Below are positions 42,234-49,439 of a stretch of DNA of 64,000 nucleotides, in pieces. This DNA is from a phage. Each line of letters opens with the position of its first letter. Positions within the stretch are counted from its first letter, which is position 1. A model generated the notes under the pieces. It did not search any database, was not told where the DNA came from, and saw only the letters and a program-made list of their open reading frames with translations. The DNA is taken from sequence record NC_135732.1; one strand, written 5' to 3'. Made by a program: the position numbers and the translations under genes.

Positions 42234-43699
42234 CACACAATTAGCTGCCCGGCTAAAGTGCTGGAAGCGCACCTATAACACATATTTCAACTAAATTTCC
42301 CACCACCACAATCACTTACCTACCACACGTGACTGTTTGCTTGTTTAGTGAGCAGTCATGCCTTGACATTCTTGCCTATCCTGATAAAATTAAGTTCTTC
42401 TCTTTTCTTTTACCGAGTAATTCGGGTTTTCTGTTCTCTTCGGTTTGAAGGGGTATGGAGATACACCTGAGTGAACAGGGTGAACAACCGAACCATTAGC
42501 TATGGCATTAGCATGGCGAAGCGGACGGGTGACGAAAGAGGGGCCGGAGGACACCAGTCACTGCCATATGATATATGGGTGATAACCTGAAGAGTCTGAA
42601 TAAGTGTTTAAGTACCAGTCAGAGGAAAAGGTGAATGGTAGCCGAAGGGGGAGGGGGGGTTTCTTGTATCTTTAATTTGTATATTATGTATACACTTGTA
42701 AACCAATTTCATATGAATCTGTTTACCACACAAAGTGGATTGAGACAAATATTACCTATTAAACTTGAATTATTTATAGAAAATACCACAACACACCTTA
42801 AGTCTTTGATTTTACACATAAATCTTACAGATATTCAACCTCCATATTTAACATACTTGTAACATATCCTATACCACACCTGCCTGATCAATTCCCCCAA
42901 CTACATCCTCTATATTTTCCCTGTCTGTACTACCCCATCCCCGCCGGGAGTCCCGTCATATCTGGCTTTCCAGCAAATATCACACCCACAAATATCATTG
43001 CCTGAAGAGGGTTTCATCCTCTAATACCTGCCTTACCTGAAGAGCGCTTCATACACCACGTAAATTTTTTAATTGACCTGCAATTTTCCCGTCATGACCC
43101 CCTGCCCCGCCGGAGAGGTTGGCTTTTCCCACACAGACCTGAAGAGTCAGCCAGAAATATCTGAACAGGCCCAATTCTACCACGATTTTGACCTGACCTA
43201 CAGGAGTGCTGCCAGGCGGACGAAATGGGAATACTTCTCATTCTTATAATAATTCTCAAATATCGAGGCAGTGAAGCAAATTAATAGGTGAGGCCGTTCA
43301 CATAGTGGCACAACATTTGCAATCTATTTTGTGTGGGGGAATGAGAATACCTATCATTGTGAGAACTGTTATCATTACGGGCAATTTAACATAATACCCA
43401 TTATGCGCACCACTGGCGATACATACAGGGATTGATAACATGAGTTACTGTTTACGCATATAACAATTATATTTATTACTATTTGTGTGGGATATAGTTA
43501 GCAGCCGATAGATTAGATATTGACCTGCGGACTTCTGACCGTCTAGACGTCTAAACGCCCACACAGCAAGAGTTATACATACATCGCTGAATGTAAACAG
43601 GGCCGCAAAAATGCTACCATACCAGTTTGTAAATTTTTCATGCAGCACTTGACAAAGAGGAGAAAAACTTGTCTGACATAATGTGACCTAACTGACACA

Positions 43700-43800
43700 A
43701 CATGACACTTTTACACACCTATTAGTTTACACACTGGATTGTTTACATTCCTGATTGTTCACATGCTAACCATTTACATGATTGACTGTTTACACACCGA
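43700..43800. repeat. Cluster of short direct repeats (iteron-like): TGTTTACA(C) and CATGACA
   Basis: Six or more copies of GTTTACA/TTTACAC within ~100 bp; further copies at ~44216 and ~44259. Confidence 0.7.
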
Positions 43801-43807
43801 TAATCAG

Positions 43808-44060
43808 CCATGCCATTCGTTTGCATGACAATAATTATACATGACAATAATCGCACTGATTATAATTAGCATGACATAATATAAAAGCAGGGCAACTATT
43901 AGCAGATCTATAGTTGCCTTGCTTGTTATGTCATGATTAACTAAATACAAGGCAACTATGATCTGATTAATAGTTTGCAGACAAACTATCACGGGGGTGA
44001 TGGTTACTGCTTTTATATTATGTCGCGACTCCGTCGCGCCATGCCATTCGTTTGCATAGT
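43808..44060. repeat. Composite element: 20-bp direct repeats flanking a 16-bp perfect inverted repeat and nested palindromes
   Basis: GCCATGCCATTCGTTTGCAT at 43808 and 44040; CATAATATAAAAGCAG (43875-43890) with its exact reverse complement at 44007-44022; palindrome GGCAACTAT...ATAGTTGCC at ~43891-43919. Confidence 0.75.
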
Positions 44061-47871: not shown

Positions 47872-48289
47872 AAATTTATCCTCTTTACTGGTTAGTGCGG
47901 TGTTGTTCACCTTGTAGGGTAATAATACCATGATTAACCTTGTTGTCAACGATTATTTTAAATTATTTTTATGATAGAATCCACCTGCCGCCCCCGCCAG
48001 GTTAACCACCATTTTTCGTACTCTTCTTTATGTTCCCGCGCTTCTGTATCATTAATCACTACATTTCCCAGGTGAGTAGCATTACCTTTCATTTTTGTAC
48101 CTCCTCTTCAATTGTTTACCCTACAGCATGGGCCTACCAGGTTTGCAAGATTTCACCCTCTCCCACCTGGTCAGTTAGGTCCTGCCAGGCTGGCCCCGCC
48201 AGGTTGCAACGGTTAGCGCATCAGGTTAGAAAAATTTTTTGAAAAGGTGTTGACAGCGGCCCCGCCAGGGGGCACAATATACCTATCGA

Positions 48290-48520
48290 AAGGACGGCAG
48301 GCACCGGTGACGGGGGAGACAACCACCGGGGATGGGCGCTGCATAAAATGAGAACGGTTATCATTATCATTTAAAAATTTATGCAAAAAATCCTTGCCTT
48401 CTTTGTCCTGTGTGATACTATAATAACAAGCCGGGGCAACAGGGGCCGGGAGACAATCACCGGGCCTGCCCGTTATTCTGCAAACGAGAATGATTATCAT
48501 TCAAAATTCTAAATGAGAAC
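48290..48520 (+). repeat. Two ~90-bp imperfect direct repeats, each with a GC-rich hairpin and a shared GAGAAxGxTTATCATT box
   Basis: Unit 1 ~48291-48380, unit 2 ~48423-48520; shared core GGGAGACAA(C/T)CACCGGG. A TTGACA promoter-like site lies at 48250. Confidence 0.55.
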
Positions 48521-48628
48521 TCCTCGCATTTAATAAATTTAATTAGCATGCTAATTACCCTCCGTAACAATTTCCTATAAAACAGTATCCCATAAAATAT
48601 TCCCATATAGAAATTTTAAAAATCCATT

Positions 48629-48801
48629 TCTGAAAACGAAAAATCGATTTCGTCCCCAAAAATTTCAGGTCGAGAGCTGGAACGATTTCCAGAAAATCCG
48701 ATTCAGAAAACGAAAAACAGATCGAGTACTTGGAAATTTATCGAGAAAAATTTTCAGAAAATTCAATCTTTGAAACGAAAAACAGATCGAGTACTTGGAA
48801 A
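48629..48801 (+). repeat. Tandem direct repeats, three copies with period ~66-74 bp
   Basis: GAAA(A)CGAAAAACAGATCGAGTACTTGGAAA at ~48706 and ~48772 (about 30 nt nearly identical), plus a degenerate copy at ~48632. Confidence 0.7.
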
Positions 48802-49106
48802 GCTGTACCGCAACTTCAAGATAGTGGTTAGATTATTACCATAAAAGGTCAAGGGTAAGTGGAGGAAGTTCTAGTAGAAGGATGTGAGCATGTGCGGGAA
48901 ATCTGTAATGGTGGTCTGGAATATGGTGCAAACGATAGGATGAGCGATTCAGCTTGTCGCGCCTACTCTGAAAAATCCATTTTAGTTTTCGATCCATTTT
49001 CTGATTTTCTAAGAATTTTAAAATATCTGGTCCGGTTAAATATCAAAAGGAGGAAATCCATTTTAGAAATCCTCCTGATCTCTAGCAACCTGATAACTTA
49101 AAAATA

Positions 49107-49439
49107 TCAGGTGCCCAGTTTGTTCTTTCCTTTATACAACCGTAAGGGTATAGTTTTTGTAACAGTCCATCTCCCCAGCCCTTCCCAGTTCCAGTTGTAG
49201 GCATGGTACCCGGTTACGCATGCACTGCTAGAGTGGTCATAGGCATAAGAGAACGCTATACGCACCAAATGGAACCAGTCTTTCCACGGTTGTGGTCCGT
49301 AAGCTTTTCTCCAACACCGACACAAACTAAATGTCTCAAGAATAGGCAGGATAACAAATCCATACACCGCCACCAGAATAGCCAACGCAATGATTGTCAG
49401 GAATACATACCCTGCAGTTGAAACGATGATCTCTGTCAT
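49107..49439 (-). CDS. hypothetical membrane protein
   Basis: N-terminal TM segment VFLTIIALAILVAVYGFVILPIL. Confidence 0.45.
   Translation of the reverse strand: MTEIIVSTAGYVFLTIIALAILVAVYGFVILPILETFSLCRCWRKAYGPQPWKDWFHLVRIAFSYAYDHSSSACVTGYHAYNWNWEGLGRWTVTKTIPLRLYKGKNKLGT

Follow-up and report, generated by a model that had tools for sequence, protein, structure and literature searches.

What does a stretch of about 1 kb without credible genes do in the middle of a long series of small minus-strand early genes? Annotated relatives of the phage studied here, an rV5-like E. coli phage (Vequintavirus) from which we analysed a single stretch of 64 kb (hereafter the window), all raise this question at the same locus. 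What the rV5 genome paper records is limited to a 'non-coding' box and changes in skew tied to the direction of transcription (PMC3606486). The 1.5 kb around the locus is 98.5% identical to Escherichia phage ime and 91–97% identical to ~100 further rV5-like phages. A tRNA/tmRNA scan found neither in the region, and the flanking genes do lie on the minus strand, as the initial annotation had stated. That annotation proposed a GC-rich box in three copies, followed by two structured direct repeats that each carry an AT-rich box, and read the whole as a regulatory array or a pair of small RNAs.

The GC-rich box, CCCCGCCAGG, has exactly three copies, at 47992–48001, 48194–48203 and 48260–48269, no more than 6 nt from the positions first given. 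The 11-mer under which it had been reported, GCCCCGCCAGG, occurs only twice, a C preceding copy 1. When one mismatch is allowed, there are seven matches to CCCCGCCAGG in the 64 kb (three exact and four with one mismatch) against 1.45 expected, and seven were reached in 0 of 100 shuffles; the related boxes reported from 42–44 kb are one-mismatch variants of this kind (42939, CCCCGCCGGG; 44639 on the minus strand, CCCCGCCTGG). The three copies, all read on the plus strand, have different settings. Copy 1 lies within the 3' end of a minus-strand ORF (47958–48092; 44 codons, strong RBS) and is not conserved, its place being taken in relatives by CCCCTGCCAGG, CCCCCGCTAGG or CCCCTGACAGG. Copy 2 is kept in six of seven close relatives and belongs, with three looser relatives, to a family of 17–20-nt CCAGG-containing direct repeats at 48124–48205, in which the deletions of phages Gotham, C12 and YP-6 have their end points. 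Copy 3 is the spacer of a promoter, P1, and the spacers of the equivalent promoter in other genera are also GC-rich and often palindromic. It is the sole copy within a promoter, the neighbouring early promoters at 47949 and 47670 having no GC box. The idea that the box marks promoters of one temporal class is not supported: the motif search showed no genome-wide motif, and copy 3 simply forms the P1 spacer. What the GC box provides is mainly the spacer of a promoter or a repeat prone to deletion, and it is not the key element of the locus.

The two imperfect repeats, on the other hand, are real. Their core, GGGAGACAAYCACCGGG, is found at 48314 and 48448 with 94% identity, the box segments lie at 48346 and 48482, and the units are spaced by 134–136 bp with an overall identity of ~57/101. 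In each unit, a sigma-70-type promoter on the plus strand comes with a GC-rich inverted repeat and a 'GAGAAxGxTTATCATT' box. P1 (48250–48278, plus strand) is the promoter-like site that had been noticed at 48250; it reads TTGACA-17-CACAAT, a 10/12 match, and its hexamers are conserved in seven relatives. P2 (48394–48424, plus strand) can be read as TTGCCT-16-TACTAT preceded by TG, or as TTGCCT-19-TATAAT. At 8/12 it falls below the threshold of the promoter scan, and it was read from the sequence, not called. The same -35 and -10 elements and a spacer length of 16–19 nt recur in eight relatives of different genera, with TTGnnn and TAT(A/T)(A/T/C)T as the conserved hexamers and a variable spacer sequence. 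Since hexamers and spacer length are held while the spacer sequence varies, transcription from P2 is likely, and on the evidence of conservation both promoters are likely to be functional. The GC-rich inverted repeats follow on the plus strand at 48297–48342 in unit 1 (containing GGGAGACAACCACCGGG; minimum free energy -21.7 kcal/mol) and at 48434–48471 in unit 2 (-21.6 kcal/mol), the former 100% identical in seven close relatives. A conserved core, GGGAGACAATCACC-N5-TGCCCGTTATTCTGCA (48446–48482, plus strand), joins the leader of unit 2 to its box, and unit 2 has a weak UUAUUCUG tract of which unit 1 shows none. Both units are almost invariant within the genus; the adjacent small gene has substitutions and a 33-bp indel.

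The AT-rich element proved the most informative part of each unit. 'GAGAAxGxTTATCATT' is half of a 19-bp palindrome, AATGAGAAT-n-ATT(C/A)TCATT, and this palindrome is the 7-1-7 Fur core (TGAKAAT-n-ATTMTCA) with T or G at one position. Its half-sites alternate independently between TGAGAAT and TGATAAT, as those of natural Fur sites do. The best match of the whole window to the literature Fur consensus, GATAATGATAATCATTATC, is 48350–48368 with 16/19 positions, a score of at least 16 being found in just 4 of 200 simulated sequences, and 48486–48504 matches at 15/19. Two copies of the 7-1-7 core TGAKAAYnRTTMTCA, at 48349 and 43360, compare with an expectation of 0.01. A matrix made from 21 phage boxes alone was also applied to the surroundings of the E. 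coli K-12 enterobactin cluster (49 kb), where the top four matches, and six of the top seven, fell in the fepA-fes, fepD-entS and fepB-entC intergenic regions, which together make up 726 bp or 1.5% of the DNA scanned (p ~5e-8). The exact 19-mer AATGAGAATGATTATCATT is present in at least 120 bacterial genome stretches from many phyla, with Proteobacteria, Firmicutes, Cyanobacteria, Chloroflexi and Actinobacteria among the matches listed. At the first 16 bacterial loci, taken unselected, at least nine flanking genes are clearly iron-related and three more plausibly so; the ORFs include five TonB-dependent receptors, Peripla_BP_2, PepSY_TM, FUR, rubrerythrin, a Lys/Orn N-monooxygenase and ferric-type solute-binding proteins. 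Statistically and comparatively, the boxes are predicted Fur-type sites. The 'regulatory array' of the initial annotation thus holds as regards regulation, which would act through the AT-rich predicted Fur boxes, and fails as regards the GC box as its key element. No Fur homologue was found by tblastn in the window, so the binding protein would be that of the host.

Where do these boxes lie? A matrix from which the window's own sites had been left out, applied to the window at a cut-off of at least 8 bits, gave seven matches in 64 kb, confined to two clusters at 48347–48530 and 43224–43376. Five of the seven score at least 18.9 bits, compared with a mean maximum of 12.1 bits in 200 simulations, so the box picked out in the initial annotation stands far above chance. 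In the first cluster, Fur box 1 (48347–48371) has two overlapping registers, 48347–48365 (25.3 bits) and 48353–48371 (10.4 bits), Fur box 2 (AACGAGAATGATTATCATT, 48483–48501; 24.3 bits) is identical in seven relatives, and Fur box 3 (AATGAGAACTCCTCGCATT, 48512–48530; 18.9 bits) follows 29 bp after box 2. Measured from the P1 and P2 starts, these boxes are placed at ~+52 to +100 and do not overlap the -35 or -10 elements of those promoters; only weak, non-conserved minus-strand promoters overlap boxes in the window. The second cluster comprises 43224–43242 (20.7 bits), 43340–43358 (20.8 bits) and 43358–43376 (13.4 bits), as well as a 7-1-7 element at 43244–43258, and is situated in a 2.5-kb non-coding zone towards which rightward and leftward blocks of genes run. 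Relatives of 83–88% identity have kept it, boxes and flanks about equally, which makes the contrast between them uninformative, and it has no equally conserved promoter partner. The rest of the close relative ime (~74 kb) showed no site of at least 14 bits.

The initial annotation had tied its reading to the conservation of the repeats in related genomes, and conserved they are, both units within Vequintavirus and unit 2 across genera. By blastn, the unit 2 core is found at 79–88% identity in Klebsiella, Serratia, Salmonella, Cronobacter and Pectobacterium phages, and unit 2 also in PVP-SE1 (Salmonella) and phAPEC8-type phages, while the flanking DNA is otherwise unalignable across these genera. 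A module of promoter, GAGACAAnCACC, 21 nt and Fur box is common to Vequintavirinae and Stephanstirmvirinae and has been kept in Seunavirus, Mydovirus, Certrevirus and Phapecoctavirus. Its order is always a plus-strand promoter, a GC-rich leader, GAGACAAnCACC, exactly 21 nt (..TGCCYGYYATTCTGCA) and the first Fur box; CACC and the box are always 21 nt apart, the -10 element and the box 58–63 nt, and an alignment of 13 sequences is gap-free from TGCC to the box. By this comparison the predicted boxes are linked in cis to the promoter. After the first box come 0–3 more boxes with a start-to-start period of exactly 29 bp (PVP-SE1 has a single box at this locus), and then direct repeats of 65–74 bp. 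In our phage the latter are three 57-nt direct repeats, or iterons, on the 3' side of the Fur boxes (48606–48801, plus strand), spaced by 74 and 65 bp, and in PVP-SE1, BIS47, Kashira, CR8 and CB7 the boxes have analogous ..CGATCGAG.. repeats after them. Other genera hold a different, clearly structured RNA-like element of ~95 nt in the slot of unit 1, so unit 1 is a Vequintavirus-specific duplication of unit 2.

Boxes of this kind extend well beyond these phages. The two commonest box 20-mers occur in 41 and 62 stretches of IMG/VR, whose contigs can contain proviruses or host flanks, and the reversed-sequence control gave none. Clustering of contexts by similarity left 54 independent viral and 95 bacterial ones, with an identical 19–20-mer in at least 50 unrelated viral context clusters. 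Further strong sites 20–45 bp away are seen in 16 of the 54 viral and 5 of the 95 bacterial contexts (p=1e-4), and three or more sites in 8/54 and 0/95, respectively (p=2e-4). Unrelated contigs with tandem boxes include one with four at 26 bp (L208), one with three at 30 bp (L195) and L018. Bacterial boxes strongly coincide with predicted sigma-70 promoters (120 overlapping predictions in 106 contexts, against 17 in controls), whereas the overlap is weak for viral boxes (39 in 83 contexts, against 22.5 in controls). The genes beside the boxes in unrelated viral contigs are mostly small unknown ORFs and give no functional clue.

The phage probably reads or manipulates the iron status of its host. 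The explanation that we tentatively favour, and which may well prove incomplete or wrong, is that the locus is a duplicated early non-coding control module in which Fur-Fe2+ gates rightward non-coding early transcription. In each unit, a host sigma-70 promoter would fire rightward, against the surrounding leftward early genes, into a GC-rich leader of 45–60 nt that holds the conserved GAGACAAYCACC, with one or more operators for host Fur ~50–65 nt past the start site. In an iron-replete cell, Fur-Fe2+ would sit on the boxes at 48347–48371, 48483–48501 and 48512–48530 and act as a roadblock, halting RNA polymerase just past the GC-rich leader and the UUAUUCUG tract so that transcription yields no more than short leader RNAs. 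Under iron scarcity Fur would come off, and the P1 and P2 transcripts would enter the iteron region at 48.6–49.1 kb, antisense to the leftward genes. Such a module would couple an early decision of the phage to host iron, while the same sites would necessarily sequester some Fur too. The coupling is plausible because the phage encodes its own iron-dependent ribonucleotide reductases, of the class I and anaerobic types.

Several observations speak against a roadblock. The classical geometry of Fur repression, in which the box overlaps the -35 or -10 element, is seen for the same box in bacteria and is not shown here with P1 and P2. P2 scores 8/12 and was not called, the hairpin shows neither covariation nor a significant z-score, no terminator was called, unit 1 has no U-rich tract, and the cluster at 43.2–43.4 kb stands without a promoter partner of equal conservation; roadblocking at +50 is, to our knowledge, not well documented for Fur. 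A titration or architectural role would suit the regular 29-bp arrays, and their counterparts in unrelated phages, no less well. The main rival, which we regard as possible but doubtful, is one in which the boxes sequester host Fur on replicating phage DNA, each genome bringing ~7 strong sites and being present in hundreds of copies, with the promoter linkage only secondary. The host Fur regulon (iron uptake, RyhB, nrdHIEF) would then be de-repressed, supplying iron and dNTPs for phage replication. Multicopy Fur boxes are known to de-repress chromosomal Fur targets in the Fur titration assay (FURTA), and sequestration would suit near-consensus sites placed in non-coding DNA and not upstream of genes, the regular 29-bp period, the iron-dependent reductases encoded by the phage, the prevalence of arrays in viral over bacterial contexts (16/54 against 5/95, with three or four tandem boxes in unrelated contigs) and the far lower overlap of viral than of bacterial boxes with predicted promoters. 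However, a cell contains thousands of Fur molecules, and ~7 sites per genome are few, with PVP-SE1 having one box at this locus; nor would a sponge need the strictly conserved spacing of promoter and leader. More broadly, the tandem Fur-box arrays of 26–30-bp period in unrelated virulent phages could conceivably be natural Fur sponges or Fur-dependent nucleoprotein switches, a generalisation that we put forward with considerable reserve. If it is true, the rV5-like array titrates Fur during replication and switches on host iron uptake and Fur-repressed reductases, to the benefit of the phage's iron-dependent nucleotide synthesis, its fixed linkage of promoter, leader and box makes non-coding early transcription iron-responsive, and lytic phages practise a widespread, unrecognised sensing and rewiring of host iron homeostasis by means of DNA sites, with no protein encoded.

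The remaining explanations give Fur a lesser or a different part. That the units are two small RNAs, as the initial annotation had offered, and that these act in trans, we consider unlikely. P1 and P2 would each produce a hairpin RNA of ~55–65 nt whose conserved loop, GAGACAAYCACC, base-pairs with an mRNA of the host or the phage, and the Fur boxes would either just mark where the gene ends or serve to regulate something other than this. The promoters on both units are there and make transcription likely, the apical sequence inside the GC inverted repeat is conserved, and within the genus the units show conservation of 100% or close to it, beside a variable neighbouring gene. The conserved 3' arm is, moreover, matched by different 5' arms in different genera (AUAGCGGG/CCCGCUAU in CR8, GGAUGACGGG/CCUGUCAUUC in Kashira), and given this pairing some hairpin may be maintained. 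A structured RNA is another matter: the repeats had been described as structured, and inverted repeats are present, but their folds reach z-scores of only -1.55 (unit 1) and -1.29 (unit 2) against shuffles, no more structure than their base composition would yield. RNAalifold, applied to 13 homologues of unit 2 as the covariance analysis that had been suggested, gave no consensus hairpin (-4.5 kcal/mol, covariation term -0.28), and the fold z-scores range from +0.3 to -2.6 with a mean of ~-0.7. Rfam searches of the whole window at gathering score and of 47900–49150 at E<=10 returned just tRNAs and chance snoRNA or thermometer matches, and those of six related loci no match. No intrinsic terminator was called on the plus strand at 48340–48480, the complement of the conserved loop occurs across the window at chance level, and none of 5,426 E. 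coli genomes holds a homologue of the units. A jumbo-phage contig (L013) retains the 3' segment and the box yet has no 5' arm. Conserved RNA structure is thus not supported, and with no covariation, Rfam family, terminator or target, the small-RNA proposal keeps its transcription and loses its structured product. Two other uses of these elements were considered and rejected: a leaderless small ORF from the P2 start, whose frame is not conserved between PVP-SE1 and phAPEC8, and a role of the hairpins as minus-strand terminators, the tract downstream being the P2 -10 region, which is not U-rich in relatives. We think it very unlikely that the likeness to Fur sites is a coincidence and that the boxes are operators or iterons for a phage-encoded protein, at an origin or partition-like site together with the 57-nt iterons. 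Promoters with AT-rich repeats are typical of phage origins (T7, T4), and such a site would accord with fixed 29-bp arrays beside direct repeats and AT-rich DNA, and with the location of the boxes in the two large non-coding zones of the genome. It would not account for an identical 19–20-mer in at least 50 unrelated viral context clusters, for the 19-mer in at least 120 bacterial genome stretches and beside iron genes, for the recovery of the E. coli ent/fep Fur sites by the phage matrix, or for half-sites (TGAGAAT/TGATAAT) that vary independently like those of natural Fur sites. Least probable, in our estimation, is a Fur-repressed leftward promoter, TTGAAT-18-CAGAAT on the minus strand, overlapping the first box of unit 2; firing toward P2 in low iron only, it would make an antisense RNA over the hairpin and interfere with P2. 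Its hexamers are readable on the minus strand of the window and of PVP-SE1, CR8, Kashira and the contig L024, the box would cover the -35 element and spacer in the classical bacterial Fur geometry, and at 43 kb promoter-like minus-strand sites (43275..43246 and 43419..43391) lie over or just upstream of boxes. The critical second base of the -10 element (A) is nevertheless lost in BIS47-type (CTGAAT) and CB7-type (CGGAAT) phages, the -35 element is poor in phAPEC8, the site was not called by the scan and has no counterpart in unit 1, and the 43275 site is degraded in relatives (TATAAT to TATAAC).

No other nutrient is restricted as tightly as iron in the gut and in the course of infection. If Fur binds these boxes, a large group of coliphages that are candidates for therapy, along with their relatives (rV5, PVP-SE1, phAPEC8, and phages of Klebsiella, Cronobacter and Pectobacterium), would tie the infection programme to host iron, which could explain iron-dependent variation in phage efficacy, and many unrelated environmental phages would act similarly. 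The analysis also removes a false lead, as the signal is not in the GC box or in 'structured small RNAs'.

Textbooks cover Fur boxes and Fur-regulated prophage cargo genes; stx1 of Shiga-toxin phages is one such cargo gene. Another example from temperate phages is sitABCD, carried on lambdoid prophages (PMC6969025). As in these cases, a phage genome here carries host Fur boxes and is tied to the iron regulon; theirs, however, are in the promoter of a prophage accessory gene, whereas ours belong to a virulent phage and form arrays with no gene after the boxes. Our literature search for conserved Fur-box arrays in non-coding control regions of virulent phages found none, only prophage cargo (sitABCD, stx), and that for rV5-type transcriptomes nothing relevant. 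The Fur boxes of the enterobacterial iron regulon (fepA-fes, fepB-entC and fepD-entS, for example; consensus GATAATGATAATCATTATC) have been the subject of a cluster analysis (PMC2189734). The phage sites resemble them in the 19-bp palindrome, the 7-1-7 core, the recovery of E. coli sites by the phage matrix and the presence of registers 6 bp apart (box 1, at 48347 and 48353). They differ in being non-coding sites of a virulent phage, off the -35 and -10 elements, and in forming discrete sites at 29 bp where bacteria usually have contiguous clusters phased at 6 bp.

Titration has its precedent in FURTA, where many high-affinity Fur-box copies on a replicating element likewise compete for Fur; FURTA, though, is a laboratory plasmid artefact, and the literature searched contained no description of a natural, selected Fur decoy of this kind. 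Non-coding repeats in a Vequintavirinae-type genome also bring to mind the pseudo-ToxI antitoxin-mimic repeats of the related phage phiTE, a link that we rejected: they are located elsewhere (phiTE_202 and phiTE_203 flank them, while our locus is beside homologues of phiTE_078 and phiTE_079) and share no sequence similarity. Promoter-driven replication origins of phages, such as the primary origin of T7 and oriF and oriG of T4, are alike in having host-type promoters that run into AT-rich, repeat-bearing non-coding DNA, opposite in direction to the neighbouring genes. For rV5-like phages no mapped origin is known, and a Fur-gated one would be unprecedented. Host global-regulator sites do occur in virulent phages, namely the PhoB 'pho boxes' and NtcA sites of cyanophages. 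There, as we propose for the rV5-like module, a lytic phage tunes transcription via a nutrient-sensing factor of its host; the cyanophage sites serve another regulator and nutrient at promoters of auxiliary metabolic genes, whereas the putative Fur sites described here form part of a non-coding module of promoter, leader and operator.

In relatives outside Vequintavirus, the slot of unit 1, which in the window is a repeat made up of a promoter, a GC-rich leader and Fur boxes (19-bp AT-rich palindromes), is occupied by a conserved element of ~95 nt (GGAAACGCCACCCCACGGCGAAAAGGCGGGGCUAAC..GGAAGGUGGAUCGCCGGUAG). The element lies outside the window, in the sequences of these relatives (L005:1330-1430, L006:1300-1400, L008:1310-1420 and L010:1370-1470, in their own coordinates), and is preceded by a TTGACA promoter. 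It is predicted to adopt a multi-stem fold, the variable apical hairpin of which carries compensatory changes, with G-C replaced by A-U in 4 of the 10 sequences. As Rfam contains no match to it, the element is possibly a phage RNA that has yet to be described.

The DNA 3' of the Fur boxes is also repetitive. Three 57-nt direct repeats containing CAGAAAACGAAAAACAGATCGAGTACTTGGAAA are found at 48606-48801 of the window (spacing 74 and 65 bp), with additional copies of AAATCCATTT(C/T)(T/A)G at 48973-48985 and 49054-49066. Other genera have similar ..CGATCGAG.. repeats after their Fur boxes, and the 57-nt repeats and these counterparts may be origin iterons. Further repeats lie within a 2.5-kb non-coding zone between convergent gene blocks, namely four 22-nt repeats with TTTACA at a 16-bp period (43710-43794) and a perfect 20-nt repeat, GCCATGCCATTCGTTTGCAT, with copies 231 bp apart (43807-43826 and 44038-44057). 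Many related GenBank records open in this zone, which makes it a candidate terminus, pac site or origin. The related GC boxes that the initial annotation placed at 42-44 kb derive from a loose repeat with ~166-bp spacing (42933-43052 and 43099-43150; motifs CCCC(A/T)(T/G)CCCCGCCGG and CCTGAAGAG).

On the minus strand of the window, the tRNA cluster includes an odd 99-nt tRNA-like gene (13-111), to which ARAGORN gives a 4-base anticodon and no amino acid; it has a 26-nt insertion, an Rfam tRNA score of just 35.5 bits, and the annotation 'tRNA-OTHER' in the closely related Escherichia phage ime. A small minus-strand ORF with a strong RBS (47958-48092) is 33 bp shorter than in six related phages, through an in-frame deletion.

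Beyond these relatives, three to four near-perfect Fur boxes stand in tandem in non-coding DNA of unrelated viral contigs from IMG/VR (L208:7030-7140, 26-bp period; L195:1809-1888, 30-bp period; L018:1970-2090, 26/27-bp period). Among related GenBank records, ~17 are named 'Campylobacter phage' (MG0656xx, e.g. L173, L177 and L178) and flagged UNVERIFIED. Around the repeat units, these records share 90-98% identity with E. coli rV5-like phages, and their host labels look unreliable.
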